A stretch of DNA of 64,000 bases from Gammaproteobacteria bacterium (GCA_049290495.1 JBATNV010000318.1:4709-68708); one strand, 5' to 3'; positions 6,635-52,458 are shown, counted from the first letter of the stretch. Program-made: numbers and translations. The notes: generated by a model from the letters alone, not told the origin.

Positions 6635-7597
6635 TCAGGCCGGGAAGAAGTCGATGGGCTTGGTCGTTGTCACCGGCGGTACGTCCTTCTCGAGGAAGCG
6701 GAACATGCGGATGCGCTGCACGAGCTTGCGCTCCAGCTCCTGGTCCGCGAGTTCGCTCGAGATGATTTCAACCTGCGACACTTCACCTGAAGCTTCGATG
6801 GTGAGCTTCAGCACCAGCTTGCCCTGCAGCTCCGGGTTTTCGCGCAGCGCACGATTGTAGAGCGCATAGATCGCGCCCTTGTTCTGGTCAAACACGCGCT
6901 CGATTTCTTCACGGCTGCGCGAAGCGCGCTGGCCACCGGCCCCACCGTCCTCGCTTGCACCACCGGAACCACCGCCGCCCAGCGCCGCCAAGCCACTGCT
7001 GACCTGCGTAGTGGAGCGGCCGCCCAGGCCCGAACCGCCAGTGTTGCGACTCATGCCCGCGGTATTGATGCCGCCGCTACCGACACCGGCCTTCGAGGTG
7101 ATCAAGGCACGTTCCACCTGCGGTGAATCACCAACCGCGCCGGTATAACTCGTACCACCCGAGGTGATGCTGTTGAGCGCCTTGCTGTCGCGCAATTCGG
7201 CCAGCTGATCCACGAAGGGCAACAGGCCCGCCTTGCCGGCCTTCTCCCGCGCCGTGGTCTTGCGCTCAGCGGCCGGTCGGGTCTTGCTCTCGGTGGCACG
7301 CTCGGTCGGCGGCACCGGTTCCTGTCGTTGCTGCGGCTCTGGCTGCACCACTGGTGGCGGTGGCAGCGGGATTGGCGCGGGCTTTTCAATCAGGAGGCGC
7401 GCGAGACGCGGCGGCACCGACTGCTTCAGCTGTGGGTCACGCTCCGGTAGCGGGAGCAAGGACATGAGGATACACAGTACGAGTGCCGTAACACCGATCC
7501 GCTGGAGGATGGTACGGAAGCGCTGCTCCTGATCGCCCGCATCATCCCAGGGCAGCAGATAGCTGCGGTAGTAGAGGTTGATCTTTGCGGTGCTCAT
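6635..7597 (-). CDS. TonB-like energy transducer with AgmX/PglI-type C-terminal domain
   Basis: N-terminal TM (IGVTALVLCILMSLLPL), Pro-rich PIPLPPPPVVQPEPQQ, Gly/Ser-rich linker. C-terminus: IERVFDQNKGAIYALYNRALRENPELQGKLVLKLTIEASGEVSQVEII... ATGA overlap with the upstream ExbD gene. Confidence 0.85.
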   Translation of the reverse strand: MSTAKINLYYRSYLLPWDDAGDQEQRFRTILQRIGVTALVLCILMSLLPLPERDPQLKQSVPPRLARLLIEKPAPIPLPPPPVVQPEPQQRQEPVPPTERATESKTRPAAERKTTAREKAGKAGLLPFVDQLAELRDSKALNSITSGGTSYTGAVGDSPQVERALITSKAGVGSGGINTAGMSRNTGGSGLGGRSTTQVSSGLAALGGGGSGGASEDGGAGGQRASRSREEIERVFDQNKGAIYALYNRALRENPELQGKLVLKLTIEASGEVSQVEIISSELADQELERKLVQRIRMFRFLEKDVPPVTTTKPIDFFPA

Positions 7598-8124
7598 AAG
7601 GCCGCCACCTGCGGTGAGGCCGGCGCACCGTCCTTCTGCACGACCGCCAGCGAGATCTGGCCGAAATCAGCGGCAGTACAACTCGCCATCACGCGTTTCA
7701 GCAAACGATAAGGCAGTTCACGATCACCGAGGATCGTCACCTCGCGCAGCGCGATATCGGCCTTGGCCTGCTGGATCATCACGCGGTCGGTCTGCTGCCG
7801 AAGCGCAACTTCAAGTGCCGGAATCACTACGCCCTCGCCACTGAGTGCTTCAGCCACGCTCGCAACCGGGCGGCCCTGCACGAGGATGGTGTCGCCAGTC
7901 ACCATCACGACCACGGTCTCCCGTGCCCGTTCCAGTGCCGCAGACTCCGGCAGCTGGATATCCTTCGGATTCGGCAAGACCTCGGTCTCGCCGGAACTGA
8001 CCAGCAGGAAGAACACCAGGATGGTGAAGATATCCATCATGGACACGAGGTTTAGCCCCGTCCCGGAGCGCTTCATCCGCTTGTGGTGGCGCTCCATGCG
8101 GAGCGCCCGGCGTGACATCTGCAT
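7594..8124 (-). CDS. exbD: biopolymer transport protein ExbD/TolR family
   Basis: 176 aa; ..GLNLVSMMDIFTILVFFLLV.. single TM plus periplasmic domain. Confidence 0.9.
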   Translation of the reverse strand: MQMSRRALRMERHHKRMKRSGTGLNLVSMMDIFTILVFFLLVSSGETEVLPNPKDIQLPESAALERARETVVVMVTGDTILVQGRPVASVAEALSGEGVVIPALEVALRQQTDRVMIQQAKADIALREVTILGDRELPYRLLKRVMASCTAADFGQISLAVVQKDGAPASPQVAAL

Positions 8125-8127
8125 GAC

Positions 8128-8640
8128 TCAGCTTCCCTTTGACGCCGCAGCGCCCAGCAGCGGCGCATCGCCAATCGAAATATCCGGAAACAGCTCTGCC
8201 CGTACCAGCTGTCGGCCCTCACCCACCTCGTAGAAGCGCAGCACGTCCATCACCTGCACCAGCGTGTCGTAAGGCACATCCGGCTCCAGCAGGACCGTCA
8301 CGTTCGACATGTCCGGATAGTTCGACTTCACGCGCTGCAGGTAGGTGGCCAGTCCGTCGAGATCATAGTTCCCCTCCGTACGCGGCAGACGAGTCAGCAG
8401 ACCCTGGCTGCGTTCGCCCACCTCCAGGCCGTCTGCACGCACCGTCACCTCAAGCTGAAAAACCGGCTCCTCGACCGCAGCAGAAGACGCTGCGGGCAGG
8501 TCCAGCTCGATGATGGCCAACCGCGAGAACACCGCCGTGATGAGCAGGAACGGCACCAGCACCACCATCAGGTTCATGAAGGCGGTGATATCCATCTCTG
8601 GCGTTTCGGCCTGCCGTCGCTTTCGCCTGTTACTGCGCAT
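8128..8640 (-). CDS. exbD: biopolymer transport protein ExbD/TolR family
   Basis: 170 aa; ..EMDITAFMNLMVVLVPFLLI.. Confidence 0.9.
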   Translation of the reverse strand: MRSNRRKRRQAETPEMDITAFMNLMVVLVPFLLITAVFSRLAIIELDLPAASSAAVEEPVFQLEVTVRADGLEVGERSQGLLTRLPRTEGNYDLDGLATYLQRVKSNYPDMSNVTVLLEPDVPYDTLVQVMDVLRFYEVGEGRQLVRAELFPDISIGDAPLLGAAASKGS

Positions 8641-8659
8641 GGTGAATCCTCAGTGGTGC

Positions 8660-9310
8660 TCAGGCGGCCGTCTGCTGACGTCGGCGTTCATCGACTGCGT
8701 TGAGAAACTTCACCGAGACCATTTCCAGGCTGTCGATGATCCGCGTGGTCTTGCTCTGCAGGACGGTATGCACGAAGAGCAGCGGAATGGCGACGATCAG
8801 ACCGAAGGCCGTGGTGTTCATCGCCACCGAGATGCTGGCAGAGAGCAGATCGGCTTTCTCGGCCGGATTTGCATTGGCAACAGCGGTAAAGGCCTGGATC
8901 AGCCCGATGATCGTGCCGAGCAGACCGAGCAGCGTGGCGATATTGGCAAAGGTTGCCAGGTAGTGCGTGCGGCTTTCCAGACGCGGCATCACCTCCATCA
9001 GGCTTTCTTCCATCGCCTTCTCGATGTCATCGCGCCGCGTGGTGGTGCGGCTGCGATCCAGGCCGTAGGTGAGGATCGAACCGATCGCGGCATTCGACTT
9101 CGAGGTCAGGCTGGCAGCCTCAGAAAATTTTCCCGCCTGGATGAACGGCGTGATCTTCTTCCACAGCGCCTGATTGCTCACCGACGTCTTTGACAGATAC
9201 ACATAGCGCTCGATCGCTACGGCCAGACCCACCGCGAACACCAGTGCAATCGGGTACATAAAGAACCCGCCGCTCTGCATAAAGTGGACTATCGATGTAT
9301 ACGTTTCCAT
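8660..9310 (-). CDS. exbB: MotA/TolQ/ExbB proton-channel protein
   Basis: 216 aa, three TM segments; ..LATFANIATLLGLLGTIIGLI.. and ..AMNTTAFGLIVAIPLL.. are typical ExbB/TolQ. Confidence 0.92.
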   Translation of the reverse strand: METYTSIVHFMQSGGFFMYPIALVFAVGLAVAIERYVYLSKTSVSNQALWKKITPFIQAGKFSEAASLTSKSNAAIGSILTYGLDRSRTTTRRDDIEKAMEESLMEVMPRLESRTHYLATFANIATLLGLLGTIIGLIQAFTAVANANPAEKADLLSASISVAMNTTAFGLIVAIPLLFVHTVLQSKTTRIIDSLEMVSVKFLNAVDERRRQQTAA

Positions 9311-9373
9311 GGTCTCCGGATCTCCCTGTTAATTCAGTTCGCCAGGCTCACTGCCTGCAGTCATTTACCCGAC

Positions 9374-9709
9374 TCATCTGGCCGGGGGCGGCTCCGCGTC
9401 ATACAGTTGATGGAAATAGCGCGTCTGTCGTCGAAACACTTCACGGTCTACGGGGGCGAGGATTTCCTCGACCAGGCTGTTGACCGGCCGGCCGGCAAGC
9501 TCGGCCATGGCCGCGTCCTTCCAGGGCACGATGTACATGACCTTCGGCAGTTCCTGGTTGCCACGAATGGCCGTGGCGTCGAGGTTTAGCGCCGTAGCGG
9601 CTGGCGAAGCGACAGCAGCCGGTGCGGCTGAATCTTCGGCGCGGGCCATACCGCCGGTCAGCAGCGCACACAGCAGCAAGGCAGTTCTGCCTGGCGGTAT
9701 CGGCTTCAC
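9374..9709 (-). CDS. secreted protein, hypothetical
   Basis: 111 aa with signal peptide (..LLLCALLTGGMARA). ATGA overlap with the upstream TPR gene. Confidence 0.7.
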   Translation of the reverse strand: MKPIPPGRTALLLCALLTGGMARAEDSAAPAAVASPAATALNLDATAIRGNQELPKVMYIVPWKDAAMAELAGRPVNSLVEEILAPVDREVFRRQTRYFHQLYDAEPPPAR

Positions 9710-10338
9710 GTCGCGCCCTCTGCTCTTGCAGTGGTCGGCATCGCCGAGACGCGGCGCCGCAGGTCGGCGATCCAGCGCTCGACATCGGCATTGCTGTCGT
9801 CTGCCGCGAGGCTGAGGTATTGCTGATAGTTGACCAGCGCAAGCTCAGGTCGCTGGATGTAGAGGTCATAAAGGACGGCAAGGTTGTAGTAAGCGAGCGC
9901 ATAACCCGCATCGAGCTCGACGGCCTTCAGATAGGCCCGCTCGGATTCACTGAACTGCCCCTGCTGCCGGTACAGCACACCGAGACCGTTCCACACCGGC
10001 GCACAGCTAGTGCACACCGCGGAGGCCTTTTCGAAATAGTCGCGCGCCGCGGCCTCGTCGCCCTGCCGCATGCGCAGCAGCGCAAGGTTCAACAGCGGAC
10101 CGGCCAGCTCCGGATGCGCAACACTGAGAGCCTGCAGCGCACGCTCTGCAGCAGCGTCATCGCCGGCTTGTACGGCGGACAGCGCTGCCGAGTAGTCCGC
10201 CATCACCGCTGGCGACGGGCCTGTGTCTGCAACAGTCGGTGCGTTTTTCGCCGCACGCTCGCCGCCCGCCAGACTGCAGCTCACGCAGAACAGGGCGGCG
10301 AGAACTGCAGCAGCTCTAGTCAATCGTTGTAATGACAT
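9706..10338 (-). CDS. TPR-repeat lipoprotein
   Basis: Lipobox ..LFCVSC; TPR-like repeats (..AYLKAVELDAGYALAYYNLAVLY..). Confidence 0.8.
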   Translation of the reverse strand: MSLQRLTRAAAVLAALFCVSCSLAGGERAAKNAPTVADTGPSPAVMADYSAALSAVQAGDDAAAERALQALSVAHPELAGPLLNLALLRMRQGDEAAARDYFEKASAVCTSCAPVWNGLGVLYRQQGQFSESERAYLKAVELDAGYALAYYNLAVLYDLYIQRPELALVNYQQYLSLAADDSNADVERWIADLRRRVSAMPTTARAEGAT

Positions 10339-13141
10339 CTTCGCTCCTTTCAGTGCGCGACCAGCGCGCCGGAACCATCACGGCCAGACGCGCGTAGCTC
10401 GCGCGTACCCACTCGTCATAGACGCCATCGCCGGCGCGTTCAGCATTCACGCGATAGAGATCGATGGCCTTTTCTTCGAAGGGAAACGCCTGCTCTTCAA
10501 GCAGCACGTCGTATTGCTCGGACTCATCCGCATCCAGGTCCTTTGGCCGCTCCGAGGCGAGCAGGTCGCGACTCAGCTGGTAGTAGAGATCCGCTGTTTC
10601 AAAGGTTGCCGCGGTGGTGACCTGCGCGACGCCATAGTCAGCCGCCTGCCCATAGGCCTGCAGCGCCTGCTCCATGCGGGTTTTTTTCAGCTTGAGGCTC
10701 TTGTCCAGTGGCGCGGTGAGCACCACGGCGTTGAAGGCATCGCGCATGGGCCTGGCGAGTTCGATAGCGCTGCTGGCGGCCAGGAAGCGGCTGCGGTCGC
10801 TGCGCTCTGCCCCCATGTCACGATCCGTTTTCACGATGGCTTCAAGCCAGCCCTTGCGGGTTTGCCAGTCGTTGTCTGCACCGGCGAGATCAGCCAGCTT
10901 GAGTCGTGCCTCCAGCGCTTCGCTGGCCGGTACCGGAAAGCGCGTGACGAGCGCGGTGTAGACCCGCACCTCTCCATCGTGCTGGTCTGCAGCCACGTAC
11001 AACTCTGCGGCCTGCCACAGCGCCGAGCGCTGCACGTCCGCCGCTGCGTCAGCGCTGCCGGCAATGCGCTCGTACTCGGCCGCCGCCTCTGCGCCGCGTC
11101 CGCCTTCGCGCAGCGCCACAGCCAGCTTGGCCGTGACATCGCTATTGAACTGATGCTCGGGAAATTCGCGCCGGAAGCGCTGCAGGAGATCCACCGACTC
11201 GTTCCAGCGCTGGCTGGTCAGGAGCAGCGTAGCGGCATCGAAGAGCGCACTCGGCCGGATGTCAGCATCCGGGGCCGCCGCATCGATGCGCAGGAAATCA
11301 GCCACCGCCGCATCCACATCACCACCCGCCTGGGCGAGCTCCGCCTGTCTATAGATCGAGGCAGCGATGCGACCTTCCACTTCGCGTCCGGCGGCCGGAT
11401 CTGCTTCGAGGCCACGCAGACGGACATAGGCCGACTCTGCCTCGGCATAGTGCGCGAGATCAAACTGGGCGTGTCCCATGACAGTCCAGGCGACACGCTC
11501 GAGCTCTGGCGTCACTGGCGGCTGCATCGTGACAACGAGTCCGGCGACCTCAGCCGCCCGCTCAGGCTGCTGACTGGCGTAGAGCTGTTCGGCAACGTTG
11601 GTCAGTACCGCACCCGCCTGCGGGTGGGCGGGAAAATCCGCCGCAAAGCGCAGCGCCTGTTCGATGTGTCCGGTATGCCAGGCGAGTTGCGCTTCACCGG
11701 CAAGCCGCTTTTCGTGCTCGCCCGAAGCCAGCAGCGCGGCATAGCCGGCCTCGGCCGACTTTTCCTGCCGTCCATAGTTATAGGCGGCATTCAGATAGGC
11801 ATCGCGTGCCGTATCGAAATGCTGTGCCTCGAAGAGCAGATCGCCGAGCAGAAAGCTGCGCTCCGCCGATTGCGGATCATCGGGGAAGTACGCGAGCGAC
11901 AGCCGGTACCAGCCGGCAGCCCGTTCGTAGTCGGCCGGCAGCTTGCTGCGCTGGGCCAGCGCGTGGTCGTACTGCGCCAGATCGCCCAGATGCAATTTCA
12001 GCTGCGCGACAAGCTGCGGATAGTCATCGACGCTACGGTCTTGCCAGAACGGTGCATCGAGACCGTAGGTCGCAACGTATTTCTGCTTGGCCTCAAGCAC
12101 GAGGTCCGGGAACTTGCCTCGCGTATAGGCATCGATCGCAGCCTGCAACAGATTGGGGGCCTGCGCATTGACCGGATCCCGCGCCACGAATGCCGCATAA
12201 CTTTCAGCGGCGTCCTGAAAGCGCTCCTTGTCCAGATAGAGGTCACCGAGCGCCGTGTACACCAGATAGGTCCAGGCGGGATCACCATACGGCACCAGCG
12301 CAGGTGGAATGGAATCGGCACCATCAAGGTAGGAAAGACTGATGCTGACCACGCGCAGTGTGTCATCAAGCAATTCACGCTCGGGCCGGCTCATGGCCTG
12401 TATCTGCTGATCCGGCGCGCTGGCATCGCTGCTCAGGCGACGATCGATCAGACTGAGGAAGGCGCTAAGGCCCTCTTCGTAGCGGCTCTGCTTGAACAGC
12501 GCCCAGCCGTACTTGTAGAGCGACTGCTCGTAATAGGGCGAAGCGGGCCCGCTGGCGAGGACCGCTGCATAAGCTTGCTCGGCCCCGGCATAGTTCTGCC
12601 GTATCGACCAGGTTTCACCGCGACGGAACTGGGCTTCGTCGCCATGCACTGCAGAGGGCGATTCCGCAACCAGACGATCCAGCGTGGCCAGCGATTCATC
12701 GCCGCGACCAGCGCCTTCCAGCGCCCTGGCCAGCTGATAGATGACTTCACTTCGCGCTTCGCCCGTCAGCGCCGTGTCCGTATCAACCGATTCGAGAAGC
12801 TGGCCATACAGGCCGATGGCTTCCGCGTAATGACTGGCGCCGGCACCGGCTTGCTCCGCAGAGCTCTCAAGTTCAGTTGCCGCATCCAGGTTCAGGTCGG
12901 CAAGACGACGCATGGCCTCGGCACGCATGCTGGCCGGCCCGGTATCCAGCGCCAGAAAACGGCGGTACTCCTGCATGGCTTGCGCGCTGCTGTCGACAGA
13001 CGGCAGGCCGGTGTGAATTTCCAGCGGCTTCGCCTTCAGGCTGCCGATGGTCTGACGGTCCGCCTCCGGTGTTCTGGACGCAAACGGCCACAGGCCGCCC
13101 GCCAGCGTGACCCCGAGCATCAGTGCCGCGGTGGCGCTCAT
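10316..13141 (-). CDS. large periplasmic TPR-repeat protein (941 aa)
   Basis: Signal peptide followed by many TPR-like A/L/Y-rich repeats. Overlaps both neighbours, so it is operonic. Confidence 0.85.
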   Translation of the reverse strand: MSATAALMLGVTLAGGLWPFASRTPEADRQTIGSLKAKPLEIHTGLPSVDSSAQAMQEYRRFLALDTGPASMRAEAMRRLADLNLDAATELESSAEQAGAGASHYAEAIGLYGQLLESVDTDTALTGEARSEVIYQLARALEGAGRGDESLATLDRLVAESPSAVHGDEAQFRRGETWSIRQNYAGAEQAYAAVLASGPASPYYEQSLYKYGWALFKQSRYEEGLSAFLSLIDRRLSSDASAPDQQIQAMSRPERELLDDTLRVVSISLSYLDGADSIPPALVPYGDPAWTYLVYTALGDLYLDKERFQDAAESYAAFVARDPVNAQAPNLLQAAIDAYTRGKFPDLVLEAKQKYVATYGLDAPFWQDRSVDDYPQLVAQLKLHLGDLAQYDHALAQRSKLPADYERAAGWYRLSLAYFPDDPQSAERSFLLGDLLFEAQHFDTARDAYLNAAYNYGRQEKSAEAGYAALLASGEHEKRLAGEAQLAWHTGHIEQALRFAADFPAHPQAGAVLTNVAEQLYASQQPERAAEVAGLVVTMQPPVTPELERVAWTVMGHAQFDLAHYAEAESAYVRLRGLEADPAAGREVEGRIAASIYRQAELAQAGGDVDAAVADFLRIDAAAPDADIRPSALFDAATLLLTSQRWNESVDLLQRFRREFPEHQFNSDVTAKLAVALREGGRGAEAAAEYERIAGSADAAADVQRSALWQAAELYVAADQHDGEVRVYTALVTRFPVPASEALEARLKLADLAGADNDWQTRKGWLEAIVKTDRDMGAERSDRSRFLAASSAIELARPMRDAFNAVVLTAPLDKSLKLKKTRMEQALQAYGQAADYGVAQVTTAATFETADLYYQLSRDLLASERPKDLDADESEQYDVLLEEQAFPFEEKAIDLYRVNAERAGDGVYDEWVRASYARLAVMVPARWSRTERSEDVITTID

Positions 13142-15048
13142 GGTGCACTGCCTTTAGGCGCCACGGCGCGCACGGACGAGGCCGCACGGTCGTAAATCGT
13201 GGCCAGCGCAAAGCGGGCCTGCACGCGATAACTCAGCAGGCGATCGCGCTGCTCGCTGAGCGCATCGATGGCCATCGCCTGCAGGCGCTGCTCTTCAGTG
13301 CCGCGGTCACGCGCCAGGGCCGCCTGCATGTTATGGATGCGTGGCGTGAGTGCCGCGATATGTGCGGAGAATCGATCCAGCTCTGCTGGCGTATCGTGCC
13401 AGGCGGCCAGACCCGATGCATGCGCGGCCTGCGCCTTCATCAGCGCGGCATCGATCCGGGCGAGCTCACGCTGCTGCTGCCACAACCGGTATTGATAGTC
13501 GCGATCGAGATCCCAGCTCAGCACGCCCTTCAACAGGCGATAGCGCTCGCGGACATCGCTGGCCGCTGCGTCCGCCAACTGCGGACTGGCACCCAGTGCT
13601 TCGAGACGCTGCCAGCGATCGAGCTCTTCAGTAGTCGCAAGCCCGGCAATATCGCGTGACTCCGCAACCTGCTCCAGATGCGCCGCCAGCGCATCACGCC
13701 GCGCCTGCAGCGACTCGAGACTGGCCTCATCGAGACCGGCAGCAACGCGCTGCTCACGTTGCGCATAAGCCGTGCGACGCGTCTCCACCATCTGCTCAAA
13801 GGCGGAGAGCTTTGCCTGCCACTCATCGAGATTGACTGACAGCGCGGCAAGGTCACGCACATTGCGCAGGCCTTCCTGAAAGCCGTGCCGCGCAACCAGG
13901 TCGTACAGGTAACGCGTTTCAATGCTGTCAGGCACAGTATCGAGCTGCCAGTACCAGCGCCCGATCCGCGCATCATCGGCACTGAGCATCGCGGGGATCA
14001 ACTGGCCGGCGCGACTGCCGTCAATCGCAGCATCGAGTTTGCCGATCTCGGTATCGTAAGCATCCAGCGCAGCCTGGTAGCCGGCCGCCGCCTCGCTGTG
14101 TGCGTCGAGCCTGGCCCAGGCATAGGGAATCGCGAGCAGCGACTCCTGTACCGCACTGTCGAGCAGATCGCGGTCACGCAACTCCAGCCAGGGTGTCAGG
14201 GCAGCGCGGTAGTCCTGCGTCGCTGCATCCGCCCACCCGGCACCGAGCAGCGCCTTTGCGGAGAAGGGTCCGTTCAATCGCACCCGCGCAAGTACCGGAC
14301 GCGCTTCACCATCGCGGCCCTGCTGCAGATAGAGATAGCCGAGCGCGAGATTGGCCTTGTCACGCAGGTCGCGCAGTTCAGGCGTATCAGCCGTGCTTCG
14401 GCCCAGTTGATCGAGCTGGCGGATCGCATCCTCTGGCCGGTTGAGCCGCACCAGGGCAACGCCCAGGTTGTAGCGCGCGTAGGCCACCCAGCTTTCCGGG
14501 CCCTGCCAGCCATCGAGTACGGCAACCGCAGCGTCGAAACGACCGAGCGCGAGGTAAGCCTGTGCCTTGAGCATCGGCAGTTCAGCATCCAGGCTCTCGG
14601 GCAGCTTGCCGGAGACGCGGTCGAAGGCCTCCAGCGCCTCCGCATACAGGCTGCGCTGGTAGCGCACCTTGCCCAGGTAGAACCAGGCGCGGTTGCGCAC
14701 TTCAGGTTCAGATGAATCCTGCAACAGACGGCTGAAAATCTGCTCAGCGCGAATGTGCTGGCCATAATGCAGATACAGGCCACCGAGCAGCAGCTCGGAT
14801 TCAGCCTCGTGATTGGCGACACGACCCGCATCACGGTCAACCAGCAGATGTGTCAACGCATCAAAATGCTCGTCCTGGTAAAACTGGAACAGGACTTCGC
14901 CATAGTAAAGATCACGCACCACCGCGCCGCTCACCGGTTCAGCGGCAGCTGCTGAAGCGCTGCCAGCGAGGAACAGCAAGGCGATCAGGCCCCGCAGGCT
15001 GAATCGCCTGTGGCCTGGTGCCGGGATACTGTTGCGAGTCAGGAACAC
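13138..15048 (-). CDS. TPR plus coiled-coil protein (636 aa)
   Basis: Signal peptide (..LFLAGSASAAAA). N-terminal TPR half, C-terminal long Ala/Arg/Gln-rich helical half. Confidence 0.85.
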   Translation of the reverse strand: MFLTRNSIPAPGHRRFSLRGLIALLFLAGSASAAAAEPVSGAVVRDLYYGEVLFQFYQDEHFDALTHLLVDRDAGRVANHEAESELLLGGLYLHYGQHIRAEQIFSRLLQDSSEPEVRNRAWFYLGKVRYQRSLYAEALEAFDRVSGKLPESLDAELPMLKAQAYLALGRFDAAVAVLDGWQGPESWVAYARYNLGVALVRLNRPEDAIRQLDQLGRSTADTPELRDLRDKANLALGYLYLQQGRDGEARPVLARVRLNGPFSAKALLGAGWADAATQDYRAALTPWLELRDRDLLDSAVQESLLAIPYAWARLDAHSEAAAGYQAALDAYDTEIGKLDAAIDGSRAGQLIPAMLSADDARIGRWYWQLDTVPDSIETRYLYDLVARHGFQEGLRNVRDLAALSVNLDEWQAKLSAFEQMVETRRTAYAQREQRVAAGLDEASLESLQARRDALAAHLEQVAESRDIAGLATTEELDRWQRLEALGASPQLADAAASDVRERYRLLKGVLSWDLDRDYQYRLWQQQRELARIDAALMKAQAAHASGLAAWHDTPAELDRFSAHIAALTPRIHNMQAALARDRGTEEQRLQAMAIDALSEQRDRLLSYRVQARFALATIYDRAASSVRAVAPKGSAP

Positions 15049-15057
15049 AGCAGCTCC

Positions 15058-15621
15058 CTACTCCCACTCGCGCACAACGAACTCGGGTTGCTGGGCACTC
15101 TGCCGGTCGGAAATTCGCAACTCGACAAACTTGGCACCCACGCCCTTCTCGACTTTCAGCGTCGCGCCGCGCCGGTAGTCGCGCTCATGCGGCCCCTGAC
15201 CGGTAAACACTGCGGTCAGTTCATGCTCGCCCGTCTTGAGGTTACCGAGATACAGGCGATGGACACCACCGCGCAGCAGGGCCTTTAACTCACGCTCGGT
15301 ATACAGGTAGTTGCTGATCGGCTTGTCATCGATCTTCAGCTGCACGGAATCCAGTGCAAAAAATTCGCCGACATCCATCGACACAAAAACGGCGACCTGC
15401 GTGTTGGCAGGGAACAGCAGTTCCTCTTCCAGCATGAACAGCTCGCGATTGAGATCCAGCACATCGTCCTTCAGCGTCTGCATCTGCGTATCAACGCCGG
15501 AAGCGGCAACGACCGGCACAGCGACGGGCGCCACGGTCTCACTGCTGCTGGCCGCTCGGGTAGCCAGCGCGCCACCCAGCAGCAGTGCAGTCAGGCAGAT
15601 GTTCATGGTTAAACGGTTCAT
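15058..15621 (-). CDS. secreted protein, hypothetical
   Basis: ATG at 15621 preferred (GGAG 7 nt upstream). Signal peptide MNRLTMNICLTALLLGGALATRA. Confidence 0.75.
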   Translation of the reverse strand: MNRLTMNICLTALLLGGALATRAASSSETVAPVAVPVVAASGVDTQMQTLKDDVLDLNRELFMLEEELLFPANTQVAVFVSMDVGEFFALDSVQLKIDDKPISNYLYTERELKALLRGGVHRLYLGNLKTGEHELTAVFTGQGPHERDYRRGATLKVEKGVGAKFVELRISDRQSAQQPEFVVREWE

Positions 15622-15649
15622 CGCATTACTCCGCATCAGTCAGCAACGT

Positions 15650-16141
15650 TCATTCCGAAATCAGGGCAGACAGTTCATCGGTATAGGTCGTGGCGTCTTC
15701 AGCGCGGTATCCGGCATACACCTGGCGGACAGTGCCGTGCGGGTCGACGAGTACGGCAAAAGGAAGAACAGAAGGGTCGTACTCACGGACCACCGACTGA
15801 TCGGCGTCGTGCAGGATGGTGATACCCAGACGTTTTGCAGCATCCCGGGCAGGTTGATCATCTGTATCGATGTTCACGGCAAGGATGCGCAGATTCGCAT
15901 CGCCAAAACGGTGCTGCAGATCGCGGAGCATGGCCAACTGCTCACTGCAGCGGTTGCACCACTGCGCCCAGAAGCTGACAAGTACAACCTGGCCGCGATA
16001 CTCCGACAAACGCAAATTGGTGCCTGCGCTGCTCTTGAGTGCGAAATCGGGCGCCGGCTGACCGGCAAGCCCGGAGCTGGCCGGAACGGCGACGGGTAGG
16101 AGCAGCACAGCGAGTGCCAGGGAAATGCCACTCCGGCGCAT
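15650..16141 (-). CDS. TlpA/redoxin-family thiol:disulfide oxidoreductase
   Basis: ..VVLVSFWAQWCNRCSEQL.. thioredoxin motif after a signal/anchor (MRRSGISLALAVLLLPV). ORF-track start 16300 rejected because it lies inside the leader hairpin. Confidence 0.85.
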   Translation of the reverse strand: MRRSGISLALAVLLLPVAVPASSGLAGQPAPDFALKSSAGTNLRLSEYRGQVVLVSFWAQWCNRCSEQLAMLRDLQHRFGDANLRILAVNIDTDDQPARDAAKRLGITILHDADQSVVREYDPSVLPFAVLVDPHGTVRQVYAGYRAEDATTYTDELSALISE

Positions 16142-16287
16142 GAACGCGCGAAGCAGCACAGCGCCTGTACTGCGCCTCTGTCCGTGCTGCTGACCGATGA
16201 TCTTCAAAGCCTGTCTCCGCGGAACCAGCACAGCGCTGGTGCTCACACACAGACAAGGAAAACAGCTAGAAGATAGAGGGGACGCAT

Positions 16288-16311
16288 GACGCAGGCCCAC
16301 AGGCCTGCGTC
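16288..16311 (-). terminator. GC-rich hairpin directly after the riboswitch aptamer (possible expression platform)
   Basis: Perfect 10-bp stem GACGCAGGCC/GGCCTGCGTC with a 4-nt loop. Its 5' arm abuts the AAUCCUG segment that can pair back into the aptamer. The downstream tract is pyrimidine-rich but not a clean U-run. Confidence 0.4.
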
Positions 16312-16452
16312 AGGATTCGGCAGCTCCGCTGTCCTGGGTGCAGCTCGCAGCAAGCGAGGCGCCGTTAGACCGGTGGCTTTGCGTCCCCGCCTTTCAGCGG
16401 GTTTGCCTTTGTCGCCCGGAATGGTGACGATTTGACGGCAGGAATCCTGCGA
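16312..16452 (-). ncRNA. c-di-GMP-I (GEMM-I) riboswitch, candidate; boundaries approximate
   Basis: Reverse complement of 16362-16416 is GGCGACAAAGGCAAACCCGCUGAAAGGCGGGGACGCAAAGCCACCGGUCUAACGG. It matches the remembered GEMM-I core (GGCAAACC, GAAA-capped hairpin, GGGACGCAAAGCC, CCGGnCUAA) almost position for position. CAGGAUU (16443-16449) and AAUCCUG (16311-16317) can close the element. Confidence 0.7.
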
Positions 16453-25538: not shown

Positions 25539-28178
25539 CTAGTTCAGGGGCGCCTGAAACGGATCGTTGTAGTACTGCGCACCGATATCCACCCACTCGG
25601 AAATCAGGCGCAGTTCTGCCGGCGACAGGCGGCCTGCGTGCGTACCCCCGGCTGCAAAGCGGCTGAAAAAGCGCGTCGAGTTACGCGCTCCGGCAGTCGA
25701 CAGCGACGCACTGACCGATACAGGACTGAAGACCGGATCGCCGGTTACCGGATCGACGCCGGTCTGCACCAGGCGGTCGGCAAGCGCGCCTTCGACGAGT
25801 TCCTGCTCATTATCCGTGGAGAGCAACTCGCGGTAGGCCTTGAAATGATCGCCGTTGATATCAGAGGCACCGTCTGACAGATCGAGCTGGCCGGCCGGCA
25901 GCTGCACGGTACCCAGCACGCTGACAGGCGCATGGCAGCTCGTACAGGTGTCATCGCTGAGTACCGTAACGCCGTCACCGGCCAGCGTCTGGCGGGGTTT
26001 GCTCCACAGCGGGTGTATGTGTGCCTCGTAGTTGATCGTGATCCGGCAGTGCGGCGCCCAGCTGTCGAGGCAGTCAGCGCTGGTCGGTATCGGCGTGCTG
26101 AGATCTGTATAACGCCAGGCAAAGCTCGAATCTGCAGGCCGGCCAGCCGCAACGGGATCGGTCCAGATATCGTCGTAGACGACATCCTCGTCCAGAGCGA
26201 TCAGCTGACAGTCGGTTGCGCAGCTGATGCGCTTCTTGACCTGCGCCATGGTCTCGCCGAAATCCGCAAAGAACGCAGTGTTGGTGTTCGGGAACGGCTG
26301 ACCGTCAGCCGTAGCACCGCTCCATGCGCTCGTGAAAGCAGCCTGCCGCCCGTGCGACACCTGGTTCTGTGTCGAGTGGCAGCCGTTGCAGGCCAGCACC
26401 TCACCGGGACGCAGCTGCAGCCAGTTCTGATGGCGCGCAGTGATGCGTCGCCCGTCTGCATCCAGTACCGACAGCGCGATCGGCACGTTGGCAGGCACCC
26501 GCACCACGACCGAACCATCCGGCTCGACTGGCGCATAACCGAGAATCTCGCGCATGCCCTGCCCCGCGCTGACACCAAACGCGCTGTTGTCGAAGTCACG
26601 CACATCCCGGTCTGGCAAGGCCACAGCTTTTTCGATGCGCAGAAAGCGCGCCTGACGCTGGGCGGCTGTGGTCTGCGCCGGATCGGCCACTGCGCTGATG
26701 TTTAGCGAAGCCCTGCCATCAAAGTCATAGACACTGCGGATATCGATCAGGCCCTGCTCATTCATCACGAGTTCCGGATCGAGCTGACCGGTCGAGGCCT
26801 GGTCAAAGATTACCGGCGGCAGCGTTCGCGGCTGTGCCGCCACGAGGTCGCTGACCAGTACATTCTCGGTAGGCGAGAACACCGGCAACTGCGTTCCGGC
26901 CACCGGATCGAAGATCCACACGCCATAGAGCGGAAAAGCCGGCCGCGCGTCGGGCGCTGCCAGTGCTGCCGCCGTGCAAGGCACGATCTTGTCATCGACG
27001 TCCAGCAAGCGGCAGGGGCTCCAGACCGTGAACATCCGGCCGGTACCATCCCAGAGCGGGAACGCAGCGCCGAATGTGCCACCGGGTGAGATGCCATCAT
27101 CGGTGCGCACATCATTGACCACAGTGCGAACCTGCGCCGGTCCGACCAGACCGGCATTGGCGGCGGTCGGCTGCAGGTTTTCTACAAAGTGCTCGGCATC
27201 GATGCTGACCAGGTCGCCACCACCGTCATCCACCTCAAAGGGCCGGATCACGCTAAGGATGCGTCCGTCCGGCAGCTCGCGTGGTTGCGAGAACTGGATG
27301 GTTGCACCATCGGTACCGGTATCGTGACTGCGCGAGCCGTAGTAGAGCTCAAGACCCGTTCCATCCGGGTTCATCCGGTAAAGGTTCATCTCGCTGTTGC
27401 CGGCCGCGTTGTCCCAGCGACTGAACAGAATCTGTCCGTTGGCCAGCACCGAGGCATCAAGGTCGTGGCTCTGGTTGAAAGAAATCTGGTGTATGTCGCT
27501 GCCATCGGCATTCATGACATGCAGCACAAATGCCGGCTCATTGCGGTCCTCATCCTGCGCATCGAACTGTTGCTTGCCTTCGTCGATCAGCACGGCCTTT
27601 GATTGCCGCTGCCGGGTCGAAGAAAAGACGATGCGGCCATCCGGCAGATACGCCGGCGCGATGTCCTGCCCGGTTTCGGCATTCAGATCGGAGCTGATCA
27701 CCCGGCGCAAGGTGTCACCCGCGAAGTTGTACTCCCAGATGTTCCAGGTGGGCTGGTCTTCTTCGTCGGCACCGGCCACGAATGGACCGCGCATCGCGAA
27801 AATGAGCGTGGCACCGTCCCAGGACACTTCCGGATCGCGGATATCGTAGAGACCGCTGGCCTGCGTTATGCGTTCAGTAATGTTGCGCTCAACGGCGGTA
27901 ACTGCCGCGCGCTCGCGCACATAGAGATCGGCGCCGATATCGAAGCGGCGCAGTTCGCGCAGATCAGAAGCCTGCAATGCGCCCTGCGCATCAACCGGCA
28001 GCGGCCGCTTGACGTACGCGATCGGCACATCGACCACGACCGGATCCGGGTTCTGCTCGCCACCGACGCCACCGCCGCCGCAGGCAGAGAGCCCGAAGGC
28101 GACTGCAGTCCACAGCAATAGACTGCAGACGGAAATTCTCCGCCCGCGTAATTGAATATTTCGCGTCACTAAAACCAT
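25539..28178 (-). CDS. beta-propeller (TolB/PD40-like) dihaem c-type cytochrome lipoprotein, hydrazine-synthase-alpha-like architecture
   Basis: Lipobox ..AFGLSAC. PD40-like repeats (..DGRIVFSS.., ..NGQILFSRW.., ..MNPDGTG..). Two CXXCH motifs in the C-terminal third (LACNGCHS, CTSCHAP). Start 28178 or 28184. Confidence 0.8.
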   Translation of the reverse strand: MVLVTRNIQLRGRRISVCSLLLWTAVAFGLSACGGGGVGGEQNPDPVVVDVPIAYVKRPLPVDAQGALQASDLRELRRFDIGADLYVRERAAVTAVERNITERITQASGLYDIRDPEVSWDGATLIFAMRGPFVAGADEEDQPTWNIWEYNFAGDTLRRVISSDLNAETGQDIAPAYLPDGRIVFSSTRQRQSKAVLIDEGKQQFDAQDEDRNEPAFVLHVMNADGSDIHQISFNQSHDLDASVLANGQILFSRWDNAAGNSEMNLYRMNPDGTGLELYYGSRSHDTGTDGATIQFSQPRELPDGRILSVIRPFEVDDGGGDLVSIDAEHFVENLQPTAANAGLVGPAQVRTVVNDVRTDDGISPGGTFGAAFPLWDGTGRMFTVWSPCRLLDVDDKIVPCTAAALAAPDARPAFPLYGVWIFDPVAGTQLPVFSPTENVLVSDLVAAQPRTLPPVIFDQASTGQLDPELVMNEQGLIDIRSVYDFDGRASLNISAVADPAQTTAAQRQARFLRIEKAVALPDRDVRDFDNSAFGVSAGQGMREILGYAPVEPDGSVVVRVPANVPIALSVLDADGRRITARHQNWLQLRPGEVLACNGCHSTQNQVSHGRQAAFTSAWSGATADGQPFPNTNTAFFADFGETMAQVKKRISCATDCQLIALDEDVVYDDIWTDPVAAGRPADSSFAWRYTDLSTPIPTSADCLDSWAPHCRITINYEAHIHPLWSKPRQTLAGDGVTVLSDDTCTSCHAPVSVLGTVQLPAGQLDLSDGASDINGDHFKAYRELLSTDNEQELVEGALADRLVQTGVDPVTGDPVFSPVSVSASLSTAGARNSTRFFSRFAAGGTHAGRLSPAELRLISEWVDIGAQYYNDPFQAPLN

Positions 28179-28370
28179 CACCATCCCTGTCACAGCCTGC
28201 CCAAGACTGTGTGTGCATCTGACCTGATGCGCGGCGCCCAATCGCCTGCCAGCTAACCTAATGCATAGCGATTTGAACGAACTGTTAAGGCGGTCACAGA
28301 ACCCCGGGCCGCTGATAACGATAAATGCTCAACGGCGTGCAATGCGCCGCGTTACCGGGATGGGCACAAG

Positions 28371-48972: not shown

Positions 48973-51900
48973 CTAGAACTCGATACTTATGCTCCCGGAA
49001 ACCAGACGCCGCGTCGCCACGCGGGGACTGAGCGGGTCGATCTCGATGACATCAACCTCTTCGTCAAATACATTCCGCGCACCGAAGCTGATGGAGCCAA
49101 ACCGCCTGGGCAGCCGATATTCCAGCAGCACATCCGTAATCCAGCCGTCGTCTGTCTTCGGTACAACGGGAAAAACCGAGTCGATTGCGAAGTCGCCTTC
49201 CTGCCTTACGTAACTCGTCACCAGGCGCAGCGAGAGTCCGCGCGATCCAAACAGGGACACACCAAACGGCACCCGGATCGTTTCGAGCATATTGATTCCT
49301 TCAGGCCCGTTGTGCACCTGAGGCCGGTTCAGGTGTTCGTATTCGCCAGCCACAGAGAGCGCTGTATTCAGGCCAGCGCCAAAGCCGCTGCTGCGCCCGG
49401 ACACGAAGGTCTTGTACAAATAGATCCGGGCCGACTTTTCCCGCCAGGTGGTATCCGCATCGAGAATTGCCGATGGGACCTCAAGCTTCCGCAAGGCAGC
49501 TTCGAGACCGGCAAAAGCAGACGGGGACAGGGTCTGGTCGATTGCCATCCCCACCCGCCTGGAAACCGTACCTTCAGGATCGCCATAGAACTGTTCAAGA
49601 CCGGTAAAAAACTGATTGAAGCTCGCCACTTGCGTGGGCTCCAGGGTCTGTCCACCGATGAACGGGCGCCGCAGGGATGTGAAAGCCGCAGCACGCACTG
49701 TGGTGCCATCAGTCGGCGACCAGACCATGCCAAGCTTTGGACTGAGTTGCTTTCGATCGATAGCCGGCAAGCCAAAGCTGTACCTCAGCTTGAACAGATC
49801 CAGGGCCAGACCACCGGTCAAGCTCAGATCCAGATCCGCTACCTGCCACTGGCCATAGACGTAGGCATTCGCATCGTAGGTCTCGATAGTGCCCTGTTCG
49901 AGCGGAAAGTCTTCATTGACCTTGATATAGGCCACGCCAGAGACCAGCTGGGTATTGGCAACGTGGTCGAATCGTTGCAGCTCACCGGCATAGGTATCCG
50001 CATCAGTCCGGGTAACCAGTGAACCGTCCACCGGATAGATGACATCCCTTCGACGATCCTCATAAGCGAAGGTCCATATCCAGTCCCCACCCGGACTCGT
50101 CGCATGCCGTCCGTTGAACCTGAAAGCATCAGCTTTCTCATCGATCGTGACCGGAAAAGAATTCAATTCATCGAAAGCAAAGAAAGTGTAGCCAAGCTCA
50201 AACTCGGAGTGATTGACATCAAGCTGCAGTGAGGTTGCGGGAGATACCTCAAACTGCAGGAACCCGTCATAGACATCTTTTTTCGCCGCATTGTTGTCGT
50301 TGAAGCCATCCGTTTCATAGTGCAACTGACTGACTGCAAATCCGACATTCTTCTCCAATCCACTGACGATGAATTGATCTCCGGCTGTTCCACGTGATCC
50401 AGTCATCCCATCGGCCCGGATACGCAGCTGGTTCCGGTTAAACAGGGAATTGAACTCGTTGAGACCGATCCGGCTCGGCCCCGCTCCCTGGAGGACGCCG
50501 AGATTGTCAGTACTCGTCAGCAAATTGAGCGGGGGTGTCGAGAGAGGCTGTCTGACCTGCGCCTGAAACGCTTCGCTGACGCGGGAGATATCGTACCTCG
50601 GCAACGCGGCGTATGCGTTGGCGAGGAGTCGGTGCGCCGAGGAATTGCCGAAATTCTCAGCCAGGGCCTCGGTACCCTCGCGGACTGCCAAACCCTCGAA
50701 GCCCAGCTCGTTGTAGACAGCGGAGACTCCCGCGTTTCGTGCAGCGGCATCGTCATCGAGCAGGAGCTGTGAACGGTAGACCGCGCGGTTGTCGTTCAGC
50801 GCGACAGACTCGCGCAGTTCATTCAGCGCCTCGACTGGTTGGTTGGCCACCTGCTTACTGAACGCTTCATAGAACCACGGCGTTGGATCATTGGGATCAA
50901 GCCCTTTCGCCATCTCGAACTGCGAAGCCGCAAGCTTGTCGCGCTTCTCGTCGAAGTAAGCCTTGCCCATGTAGCTCCTGACCAGCGAGTTGTTCGGATC
51001 GAGAATCACGGCAATTTCAATGTCCTTCCGCCCTGCCTCCATCTCGCCTTCACGAATTTTCGCAAGTCCCAGTCCAAGACGCGGCAGCGGTGCATTGGGC
51101 TCCAGGCGAATTGCCTCGACAAACGAGTCCTTTGCGGCACTCAGCTGGATGCGACTTAGTTCTACAAAGCCAAGCACCGAATGGGCCAGCGAGAGCTGCG
51201 GATCAGCCGCCAGTGCCGCCTTCGCTTCCGCTTCGCTGCGCCCGAATTCACCGGAGGCCAGCCAGAGCTCGGCGAGTCGTGCGCGCAGCAGCGCGTTATC
51301 GGGTTGCGCCGCTGCCCCTGCCTCGAGGTCGCTGATGGCGCCCGGCAGGTCGAAGCGCGCTTGCCGCGCATAGGACCGCGCGAGTCGGGCAGCGGCGGAA
51401 TCCGGCGCAGCGGTTACGGCCTGATCGGCAGTTTTCAGGGCGGTTTCGGTGTCATCGCGCGTGAGCGCAATCACCGACTGCCTGGCCAGCACCTCGGCAC
51501 TGCCGGGAGCGAGACTCAGCCCACGGGCGAGATCAGTCTCGGCTTCAGACACCTGGCCAACGCGGAGGCGCTGCTCAGCGCGGCCGAGGAAAAGCGCCGC
51601 CGTCTGTTGCGCAGCCGTCACTTCGGCATCGGCGGCCGGCAACGGACCCGCAGTGATCGGCGGGTAATACAGCGTCCACACCACGGCATCGCGGGGCCGC
51701 ACAATCTGCTGCAGTACCGGCGCGCTGCCGGCGCGAGCCAGTACGCTCTCGCCGGAAGCGGCCGTTGCCGCACCTGCGCTGTTCTCGACCTTCACGCTGC
51801 CCTCGTAAACGATCACGGTGGTGGCATCGCTGCTCACGCCGACGAAGAACTCCGTGCCTTCGATACCGGCATTGGCGAAAGGCGTGATGACGCGCAGCGC

Positions 51901-52284
51901 ACGCGGGTCGCGGCTGATGACGTGGATCGCGCCCTTCAGGATATCGAGCCAGGTGCGCTTGTCGTCAGTGGGTGCGGCAAAAGTGATGACGGTGCCCTGA
52001 TCGATGCGGACCACGGTCTGATCCGGCAGCTCGAGAGCTACGCGACTGAAGGCGCCAACTTCAAGCACGTCGCCTACGCAGAAGTTCTGTTGCAGACCCG
52101 GCTGTGACACGCGCGCAATACCCGCGCGGCGCAGACTGACAGTGCCCTGACTGGAGAGCAGCCGGGCGACCCAGGCCTCACATTGCTGCGTGCCGGACGG
52201 CGCAATTTGTGCGTAGAGCGGGGTGCAGAGAACGATTGCACTCACAACGAGTACAACCAGGAGCGACGAGCGGATACGTACCAT
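48973..52284 (-). CDS. FecR-domain / TPR / TonB-dependent-receptor-like beta-barrel protein (about 1100 aa)
   Basis: Signal peptide. FecR-like ..VALELPDQTVVRIDQGTVITF..GIEGTEFFV... About 8 TPRs in the middle. C-terminal half is beta-strand-rich and ends ..LVSGSISIEF. Confidence 0.85.
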   Translation of the reverse strand: MVRIRSSLLVVLVVSAIVLCTPLYAQIAPSGTQQCEAWVARLLSSQGTVSLRRAGIARVSQPGLQQNFCVGDVLEVGAFSRVALELPDQTVVRIDQGTVITFAAPTDDKRTWLDILKGAIHVISRDPRALRVITPFANAGIEGTEFFVGVSSDATTVIVYEGSVKVENSAGAATAASGESVLARAGSAPVLQQIVRPRDAVVWTLYYPPITAGPLPAADAEVTAAQQTAALFLGRAEQRLRVGQVSEAETDLARGLSLAPGSAEVLARQSVIALTRDDTETALKTADQAVTAAPDSAAARLARSYARQARFDLPGAISDLEAGAAAQPDNALLRARLAELWLASGEFGRSEAEAKAALAADPQLSLAHSVLGFVELSRIQLSAAKDSFVEAIRLEPNAPLPRLGLGLAKIREGEMEAGRKDIEIAVILDPNNSLVRSYMGKAYFDEKRDKLAASQFEMAKGLDPNDPTPWFYEAFSKQVANQPVEALNELRESVALNDNRAVYRSQLLLDDDAAARNAGVSAVYNELGFEGLAVREGTEALAENFGNSSAHRLLANAYAALPRYDISRVSEAFQAQVRQPLSTPPLNLLTSTDNLGVLQGAGPSRIGLNEFNSLFNRNQLRIRADGMTGSRGTAGDQFIVSGLEKNVGFAVSQLHYETDGFNDNNAAKKDVYDGFLQFEVSPATSLQLDVNHSEFELGYTFFAFDELNSFPVTIDEKADAFRFNGRHATSPGGDWIWTFAYEDRRRDVIYPVDGSLVTRTDADTYAGELQRFDHVANTQLVSGVAYIKVNEDFPLEQGTIETYDANAYVYGQWQVADLDLSLTGGLALDLFKLRYSFGLPAIDRKQLSPKLGMVWSPTDGTTVRAAAFTSLRRPFIGGQTLEPTQVASFNQFFTGLEQFYGDPEGTVSRRVGMAIDQTLSPSAFAGLEAALRKLEVPSAILDADTTWREKSARIYLYKTFVSGRSSGFGAGLNTALSVAGEYEHLNRPQVHNGPEGINMLETIRVPFGVSLFGSRGLSLRLVTSYVRQEGDFAIDSVFPVVPKTDDGWITDVLLEYRLPRRFGSISFGARNVFDEEVDVIEIDPLSPRVATRRLVSGSISIEF

Positions 52285-52458
52285 CACAAAGCCCCCCCCA
52301 CGGCAGGCATGAGCAAAACTGGTACGGCGCAGGCCCCACGAACGACGCCGATTTTTATTGTTTAACACCGGACCCTGTCGGGTTCCGGCGTCGTTCAGTC
52401 TATGGACTTCTGCGGCAGCGCGCAACGGAAGCAGCGATGCTTTCTTAAGCCGGTCGCC

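Follow-up and report, generated by a model that had tools for sequence, protein, structure and literature searches.

In 2011, Luciano et al. reported that the closest homologues of seven Myxococcus gliding genes are grouped at a single locus in several gammaproteobacteria, in Geobacter and in one betaproteobacterium, and this set was termed the core complex, of unknown function (PMC3169522). The locus carries a further small gene not found in Myxococcales, and the published examples include Marinobacter aquaeolei Maqu_1595-1601 and the clusters that begin at Saccharophagus degradans Sde_2954 and Thioalkalivibrio Tgr7_0536 (PMC3169522). The role of the core complex in bacteria that do not glide has been an open question since then and is key to understanding how the gliding and spore-coat machines of Myxococcus evolved; the open-access literature offered nothing relevant on a characterised function of the gammaproteobacterial core complex beyond the papers of the Mignot laboratory. 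Here we describe a ten-gene operon on the minus strand of a 64,000-nucleotide stretch of gammaproteobacterial DNA (GCA_049290495.1 JBATNV010000318.1:4709-68708; hereafter the window, meaning this whole stretch). Judged by the order and sizes of their products, genes 3 to 10 of this operon are a new member of the published cluster type. We consider it probable (roughly 0.7) that the operon specifies an Agl/Glt core complex that stands alone, a machine which spans the envelope, runs on proton-motive force, is gated by cyclic di-guanosine monophosphate (c-di-GMP) and is likely used to handle surface polymers or adhesins.

For the Myxococcus machine itself, an interaction between AglR and GltG has been demonstrated by two-hybrid assay (PMC3169522), and a published structural model of Agl-Glt, made with AlphaFold, places the TonB-like domain of GltG on GltD, GltE also on GltD, and GltF as a bridge between GltC and GltG (PMC11761067). 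The window operon resembles the Agl-Glt and Agl-Nfs systems of M. xanthus in having a TolQR-type motor, a transducer with an AgmX/PglI-type TonB fold and large periplasmic tetratricopeptide repeat (TPR) proteins. However, it lacks the GltA/B/H barrels, the GltK/CglB adhesin and the cytoplasmic GltI/AglZ/MglA platform. In its GltG-like protein the cytoplasmic portion is limited to about 30 residues and an FHA domain is missing. GltF is replaced by an unrelated small protein, and in place of MglA/Frz polarity control the operon stands behind a c-di-GMP riboswitch.

Arrangement of the operon and its likeness to published clusters

A preliminary description of the window, made from the sequence alone, had proposed ten coupled minus-strand genes of Agl/Glt-core-like composition, and ten consecutive open reading frames (ORFs) were indeed recovered at 6635-16141. 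Listed from the 5ʹ end of the transcript, the elements of the operon are as follows.

16315-16416, minus strand: c-di-GMP-I-class riboswitch aptamer, GGC variant, in the operon 5ʹ leader (Rfam RF03167)
16278-16312, minus strand: candidate expression platform, consisting of an 11-bp hairpin (16287-16312) and then UGCGUCCCC (16278-16286)
15650-16141, minus strand: gene 1, secreted thioredoxin-fold protein, TlpA/ResA-like, with WCNRC
15058-15621, minus strand: gene 2, secreted protein of 187 amino acids (aa), no Pfam or NCBIfam family
13138-15048, minus strand: gene 3, secreted TPR and helical protein of 636 aa, in the GltC position
10316-13141, minus strand: gene 4, TPR protein of 941 aa, scaffold in the GltD position
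9706-10338, minus strand: gene 5, TPR protein of 210 aa, probable lipoprotein, in the GltE position
9374-9709, minus strand: gene 6, secreted protein of 111 aa, occupying the place of the 'extra' gene of the core complex, for which Myxococcus has no homologue
8660-9310, minus strand: gene 7, proton-channel subunit of the TolQ/ExbB/AglR family, 216 aa
8128-8640, minus strand: gene 8, TolR/ExbD subunit in the AglQ position, 170 aa, transmembrane Asp replaced by Asn
7594-8124, minus strand: gene 9, TolR/ExbD subunit in the AglS position, 176 aa, invariant transmembrane Asp31
6635-7597, minus strand: gene 10, GltG-like bitopic force transducer, 320 aa

The junctions between these genes were read directly. 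Three 4-nt ATGA overlaps had been proposed, and two of them are present (7594-7597 and 13138-13141), whereas the third (9706-9709) reads GTGA, the 111-aa ORF starting with GTG. The 23-nt overlap that had also been proposed corresponds to 10316-10338, and the remaining spacers are no longer than 63 nt. An alternative upstream ATG at 15636 would extend the product of gene 2 to 192 aa. On the opposite strand, an ORF of 990 aa (10223-13195, plus strand) lies antisense to the 941-aa TPR gene; it is not among the called genes of the contig and is most likely a by-product of high G+C content.

From gene 10 back to gene 3, the encoded proteins measure 320, 176, 170, 216, [111], 210, 941 and 636 aa, in parallel with the M. 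aquaeolei cluster Maqu_1595-1601, for which Table S3 of the 2011 study gives GltG (321 aa), AglS (162 aa), AglQ (176 aa), AglR (221 aa), the unlisted 1599, GltE (162 aa) and GltD (939 aa) (PMC3169522). A second Marinobacter cluster includes a GltD of 952 aa and a GltC of 648 aa (PMC3169522). The product of gene 4 is of a size with the GltD homologues of 939-964 aa in Table S3 of Luciano 2011, and the size and position of gene 3 fit the GltC homologues of 640-648 aa from gammaproteobacterial clusters. Gene 6 sits between the GltE-like and TolQ-like genes, in the same slot as Maqu_1599, the tag not listed in Table S3. The locus thus displays one TolQ-like gene with two TolR-like genes, a GltG-type transducer, and the order and sizes of the core complex including its extra small gene. 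It is because order and sizes match those of the published clusters that we assign genes 3 to 10 to this type, and the core-like composition initially proposed can be given for eight genes on that basis (GltC, GltD, GltE, the extra gene, AglR, AglQ, AglS and GltG).

The window operon therefore shares with the 2011 clusters the eight-gene order, near-equal protein sizes, confinement to a single cluster and the lack of a linked outer-membrane barrel. In contrast to the 2011 description, in which one additional gene was noted, the window operon and 80 related loci start with the genes for the thioredoxin-fold and 187-aa proteins. Also unlike the 2011 clusters, about half of these operons carry a riboswitch of the c-di-GMP-I class, and the carriers, which are Woeseiaceae, Steroidobacteraceae and Chromatiales-like bacteria, lie outside the genome set used in 2011. 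A system of this kind has been known since that study, the present member comes from uncultured gammaproteobacteria, and we met no description of the ten-gene form with a c-di-GMP riboswitch in the open-access literature.

Conservation of the ten-gene block

A profile of the 941-aa protein retrieved relatives in at least 574 species-level genomes, and the best 80 loci were used for neighbourhood comparison. These loci, numbered here with the prefix L, come from metagenome-assembled genomes (MAGs) labelled Woeseiaceae, Steroidobacteraceae, and Chromatiales or Chromatiaceae, and they include one from a cultured organism, Peristeroidobacter agariperforans KA5-B (L050). The 120 closest matches listed in the protein searches were all gammaproteobacterial. 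Gene order was traced by tblastn with the ten window proteins and was judged where the contig was long enough. All ten genes, in unchanged order, are present in every one of the 80 loci with sufficient contig, so the neighbourhood conservation that the preliminary description had recommended examining is evident, and the recurrence of the block is far above chance. Because all ten genes occur in every locus that is long enough, membership of the redoxin and of the 187-aa protein in the block is fixed in this clade.

When ORFs within 6.5 kb on either side of 56 related loci were clustered, no flanking family beyond the ten genes was common to more than about 30 of the 56, and no conserved flanking outer-membrane gene was found in these flanks. 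No conserved neighbouring receptor was apparent among the most widely common flanking families, for which no Pfam scan was made. The unit that is conserved consists of just the ten genes. Around the window operon itself, flanking receptors were sought in the Pfam annotation of the same contig (MAG GCA_964269565.1) over 10 kb on each side; Plug and TonB_dep_Rec domains are missing from the operon and from these annotated flanks, in agreement with the proposal that it contains no TonB-dependent receptor.

Within the block, the modules do not all show the same degree of relatedness. The GltD-like proteins of L005, L006 and L007 are all about 67-68% identical to that of the window, whereas the motor proteins are 90, 79 and 81% identical to their window counterparts in L005 and 61, 44 and 49% identical in L006 and L007. 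Since the motor identities differ between these loci while the GltD-like identities agree, this pattern suggests that the motor module has been exchanged between operon lineages and that the modules are mosaic.

A c-di-GMP-I-class riboswitch in the operon leader

The operon had been suspected of being riboswitch-controlled, and its leader does contain an aptamer that scores above the gathering threshold of an Rfam family. The match is to RF03167, c-di-GMP-I-GGC; it covers 16315-16416 on the operon strand, 174 nt upstream of the first start codon, and scores 71.3 bits (gathering score 59; E 6.6e-15). An Rfam scan of 17 related loci returned RF03167 or the canonical RF01051 at the equivalent place in 12 of them. 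We then counted representatives among the 67 related loci with upstream sequence by using our own covariance model, R1, built from the Rfam matches. The element was found in 32 of these loci, always on the operon strand and 130-280 nt before the redoxin gene. In an alignment of 33 aptamer sequences, 93% of cells are paired and 12 pairs show compensatory changes, a result that none of 500 shuffles reached.

The GGC variant is carried by the closest relatives of the window (RF03167 in the window, L003-L007 and L062), and the canonical form is that of Steroidobacteraceae (RF01051 in L010-L012, L027, L043, L046, L049, L050, L053 and others). GGC and canonical aptamers stand at one and the same place ahead of orthologous operons, which suggests that the GGC variant still recognises c-di-GMP or a closely related molecule. 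The operon is also a natural setting in which to test the ligand specificity of this variant.

A candidate for the expression platform can also be proposed. In the minimum free energy fold of the leader, UGCGUCCCC (16278-16286) is complementary to GGGGACGCA (16380-16388) in the aptamer core, and a hairpin scan identified an 11-bp stem at 16287-16312 (-21.6 kcal/mol) without a U-tract. From this modelled fold, the hairpin together with UGCGUCCCC looks like an expression platform.

Both the aptamer architecture and its placement in the 5ʹ leader of an envelope-related operon are typical of c-di-GMP-I (GEMM-I) riboswitches. Glt-core-type operons do not figure among the gene classes that the main text of the 2007 paper on this motif associates with GEMM (PMC1950547), and we found nothing relevant in the open-access literature that links a c-di-GMP riboswitch to operons with TolQ, ExbD, TPR and redoxin genes.

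Motor proteins, force transducer and the TonB and Tol-Pal alternatives

Protein domains were assigned with Pfam and NCBIfam models at their curated cutoffs, and NCBIfam matches were considered at E values of 0.01 or lower. These models upheld the domain calls made initially, which comprised a redoxin, three TPR proteins, one ExbB and two ExbD proteins. Gene 7 matches Pfam MotA_ExbB (106 bits), gene 8 matches Pfam ExbD (61.8 bits) and gene 9 matches the same family (50.2 bits). The best solved relative of gene 7 is TolQ (35.7 bits), and therefore 'ExbB/ExbD' is, on sequence comparison, only a family label for these motor genes.

The transmembrane Asp is essential in TolR and ExbD proteins. At residue 23 of gene 8 (codon 8572-8574), the window and 29 loci have Asn and 37 loci have Asp, whereas Asp31 of gene 9 is kept in 65 of 65 loci. 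Because gene 8 carries Asn23 in the window and gene 9 always retains its Asp, the stator may be asymmetric and have a single protonatable residue.

Gene 10 encodes an N-terminal transmembrane helix, a Pro-rich linker, a Gly/Ser-rich linker and a C-terminal TonB-fold domain of the AgmX/PglI type. The preliminary description had placed this domain with AgmX/PglI rather than canonical TonB, and the curated models agree. NF033768 (AgmX/PglI C-terminal domain) is passed with 69.5 bits against a cutoff of 40, whereas Pfam TonB_C (17.4 against 24.6 bits) and TIGR01352 (23.6 against 27.1 bits) remain under threshold. The Myxococcus GltJ (44.9 bits) and GltG (41.2 bits) models likewise score higher than any TonB model (23.6 bits at most), and the name given to the protein by NCBI is AgmX/PglI C-terminal domain-containing protein. 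In an AlphaFold model built with 45 homologues, the last 90 residues have a pLDDT (predicted local distance difference test) score of about 90. A Protein Data Bank (PDB) fold search with this domain returned TonB-family structures as its 17 best matches (among them HasB, H. pylori TonB, FusB and E. coli TonB) at E values of 8e-4 to 6e-2, followed by TolA at 0.09 or worse. As modelled, the C-terminal domain of gene 10 is a TonB fold.

These findings bear on whether the operon might instead be a specialised TonB-ExbB-ExbD energiser that serves receptors encoded elsewhere, as the accessory TonB systems of vibrios do, with the TPR proteins as accessories. The TonB-type fold of gene 10, its weak matches to TonB models and the adjacent ExbB/ExbD-family genes would be consistent with such a role, and the genome does encode TonB-dependent receptors, the nearest in the window being located 40 kb away at 56113-58167. 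However, neither TonB_C nor TIGR01352 reaches its cutoff although the AgmX/PglI domain does, and no receptor is linked within the operon and its annotated 10-kb flanks or apparent as a conserved neighbour of related loci, so the combination of an ordinary TonB_C gene and a cognate receptor, named at the outset as the competing possibility, was not encountered. A His-containing motor-contact motif has been described in the transmembrane helix of TonB and TolA (PMC12204202). Residues 1-60 of gene 10 contain no His, and the protein consequently lacks this motif; a conserved YR.Y.LPW precedes the transmembrane helix instead. Moreover, seven extra periplasmic proteins are strictly co-inherited with the motor. 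Iron/Fur-type control is usual for TonB systems, yet this operon has a c-di-GMP riboswitch. On balance, a TonB energiser is an unlikely identity for the system.

A second Tol-Pal-like system, which would act in outer-membrane integrity or constriction with the 941-aa protein as an oversized CpoB/YbgF, is quite unlikely. Among solved structures and curated models gene 7 is closest to TolQ, four stretches of the 941-aa protein match the YbgF model, and the Joint Genome Institute (JGI) annotation of its homologues is 'TolA-binding protein'. Nevertheless, all of these scores fall under their cutoffs (66 against 221 bits for TolQ, 28 against 127 for TolR and 65.9 against 90.1 for YbgF), as does the 31.4 bits (cutoff 81.4) obtained with BamD, and the orthology of the TPR proteins to CpoB/YbgF or BamD that had been raised as a counter-explanation is thus not borne out. 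Neither TolB nor Pal is encoded in the operon or its flanks, the C-terminal domain of gene 10 ranks TonB structures ahead of TolA, and riboswitch control speaks against a housekeeping function in division.

The operon does share a general plan with both TonB-ExbB-ExbD and TolQRA-Pal, which consists of a TolQ/ExbB and TolR/ExbD stator, a Pro-rich bitopic transducer and a TonB-fold alpha/beta domain. It differs from them in having two dissimilar TolR-like subunits, one of which lacks the transmembrane Asp, in the absence of the His motif from the transmembrane helix and of receptor, TolB and Pal genes, and in missing all curated equivalog cutoffs.

Periplasmic proteins of the operon

Genes 3, 4 and 5 all encode proteins with TPR matches in Pfam (TPR_19/TPR_16, TPR_6/TPR_16 and TPR_12/TPR_1, respectively). 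Full-length homologues of the gene 4 protein, 930-960 aa in length, are abundant, and the window protein is not a lipoprotein because it has no cysteine. In contrast, gene 5 carries an N-terminal ...LFCVSC|S motif and is probably an outer-membrane lipoprotein. For the 111-aa product of gene 6, no Pfam or NCBIfam match was obtained, and its C-terminal half (ELPKVMYIVPW...) is conserved across related loci.

The product of gene 1 matches Pfam AhpC-TSA (86.7 bits) and Redoxin (74.4 bits), reaches 81 bits with the ResA subfamily model, under the cutoff of 170, and misses the equivalog cutoffs. It has the TlpA/ResA feature that was tested, a secreted thioredoxin fold with CxxC (WCNRC, codons 15947-15958 in the window), and its gene is found in every related locus that reaches that far. 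The operon had been said to carry a thiol-redox gene. This holds for the window, in which WCNRC is intact, but not throughout the family. The CxxC is kept in 48 of 68 orthologous operons, whereas in the other 20 it is AxxS or DxxS and the gene itself is retained. The operons without it (L045, L052, L055-L061, L063, L064, L066, L068-L070, L073, L074, L077, L079 and L082) are mostly those of one subgroup of Steroidobacteraceae. No conserved cysteine pair was found in any other operon protein. Given this absence and the frequent loss of CxxC, the conserved role of the redoxin is more likely structural than catalytic. Action of the redoxin on a partner cysteine pair was considered and rejected, as there is just one other CxxC, that of the GltE-like protein, which 12 of 75 loci keep, and the redoxin often loses its own.

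It is accordingly highly improbable that the operon serves periplasmic thiol-redox chemistry or cytochrome maturation, with the TlpA/ResA-like protein as its key enzyme and the other proteins as substrates or helpers. The secreted redoxin with an intact WCNRC is what such a function would call for, but the 20 orthologous operons that have AxxS or DxxS keep all other genes, the other operon proteins offer no conserved cysteine pair, and the block contains no Ccm/Res or cytochrome genes.

Motor proteins apart, the product of gene 2 is among the best-conserved proteins of the operon, and it belongs to a large family, for which at least 8000 clusters at 90% identity were scored and 932 clusters at 50% identity matched at E values of 1e-10 or lower. 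No Pfam or NCBIfam family matches it. An AlphaFold 2 model (pLDDT 64) comprises a signal peptide, a long helix (38-69) and beta-sandwich strands (76-186), and a PDB fold search with this model gave no significant match, only generic Ig-like sandwiches with a best E value of 3e-3. In one protein of 695 aa, P0499, a domain of this family (61-227) is fused to a GltC-like TPR protein (237-686). This GltC-like part aligns with window gene 3 over 376 residues at 40% identity (E 6e-63). By the Rosetta-stone argument, this fusion hints that the products of genes 2 and 3 work together, and the 187-aa and GltC-like proteins may therefore cooperate.

Stators similar to MotAB/ExbBD are also used by the Zorya anti-phage system, which can be excluded for practical purposes, since a very weak match of gene 7 to ZorA (16.5 bits, E 7.6e-4) is offset by the lack of any PADLOC match among the other nine proteins, the lack of nuclease or helicase genes of the ZorC/D type, and vertical conservation of the block across families, unlike a variable island.

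A proposed mechanism for the core complex

If the operon encodes a stand-alone core complex, its parts can be arranged by analogy with TolQR/ExbBD and with the Agl-Glt model. The product of gene 7 and a heterodimer of the products of genes 8 and 9 would form an inner-membrane stator driven by protons, with the protonatable Asp in this organism supplied by gene 9 only. The N-terminal helix of gene 10 would dock in this motor, its Pro-rich and Gly/Ser-rich linkers would span the periplasm, and its TonB-fold domain would grip a partner through strand addition. That partner is predicted to be a periplasmic scaffold composed of the GltD-like (941 aa) and GltC-like (636 aa) proteins and the GltE-like probable outer-membrane lipoprotein, to which the 111-aa protein may be joined as a bridging adaptor similar to GltF. 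The thioredoxin-fold and 187-aa proteins would be further periplasmic subunits, the latter probably positioned on the GltC-like protein.

Through the leader riboswitch, c-di-GMP is expected to gate the whole unit at the level of transcription or translation, such that the machine would be made or shut off according to the decision between motile and sessile life. Because of this control by c-di-GMP, a role in a sessile or surface programme is suggested. Glt and Nfs suggest, by analogy, that the output of the machine is most likely the energised handling of surface polymers or adhesins at the outer membrane, and nutrient import is less likely.

Several observations weigh against this interpretation or limit its reach. 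The operon has no linked gene for an outer-membrane barrel or a cargo, and the output proposed for the machine is a guess from analogy. The match of gene 5 to the GltE model NF033758 is weak (34 bits against a cutoff of 225), with PilW and PrsT models scoring equal or higher, and no GltD- or GltC-named model is among the NCBIfam matches at E values of 0.01 or lower; the proposed orthology of the TPR proteins to M. xanthus GltC, GltD and GltE thus follows from synteny and size. The P0499 fusion is represented by one protein and might be an artefact of gene calling. No GEMM aptamer was detected in Woeseiaceae- or Woeseia-labelled loci (among L017-L044, and L072), which have all ten genes; even with filters off, the best aptamer score in L033 is only 8.5 bits. 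As the riboswitch is absent from these operons, whose commonest upstream neighbour is an ApbE-like gene, control by c-di-GMP appears to be lineage-specific. Finally, there is no clear terminator. In most loci the hairpins 3ʹ of the aptamer lack a U-tract, and they differ between lineages; scans of the leader and operon for terminators and promoters gave counts equal to the shuffled expectation.

A bolder version of the core-complex interpretation, which we hold only tentatively and at odds well short of even, is that the ancestral Glt core in a large gammaproteobacterial block is a ten-subunit machine. Two fixed subunits would then have gone unrecognised, one a thioredoxin-fold protein that often lacks its catalytic Cys residues and the other a beta-sandwich protein that docks on the GltC-like subunit, and the machine would be a direct output of c-di-GMP by way of the leader riboswitch. 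If this were true, the orphan core complex would be assigned to the sessile or surface programme, and P. agariperforans would be a cultured host in which the assignment could be tested.

The operon alone will not greatly surprise a specialist. It is the link to c-di-GMP, the extra subunits and the cultured carrier that make the function of the core complex more accessible to experiment. Co-inheritance of the block together with the riboswitch provides a first regulatory clue to its role, one that points to a surface or biofilm programme rather than to nutrient uptake. In addition, a defined list of ten proteins is now available for structural modelling, and genetics can be done in at least one cultured carrier.

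Other features of the window

Three further regions of the window were recorded. A 705-aa HD_5 (HD-GYP-type) protein is encoded at 58229-60346 (minus strand) and adjoins the ordinary TonB-dependent receptor at 56113-58167 (plus strand); it is possibly a c-di-GMP phosphodiesterase, encoded in the part of the genome that also carries the riboswitch-controlled operon. At 48973-54672 (minus strand), directly downstream of a gene for a CHASE2-adenylate/guanylate cyclase, is the gene for a 1150-aa protein that combines FecR, TPR and a beta-barrel similar to that of TonB-dependent receptors. A 900-aa protein encoded at 25539-28241 (minus strand) contains a hydrazine-synthase alpha middle domain (PF18582, 61.9 bits).

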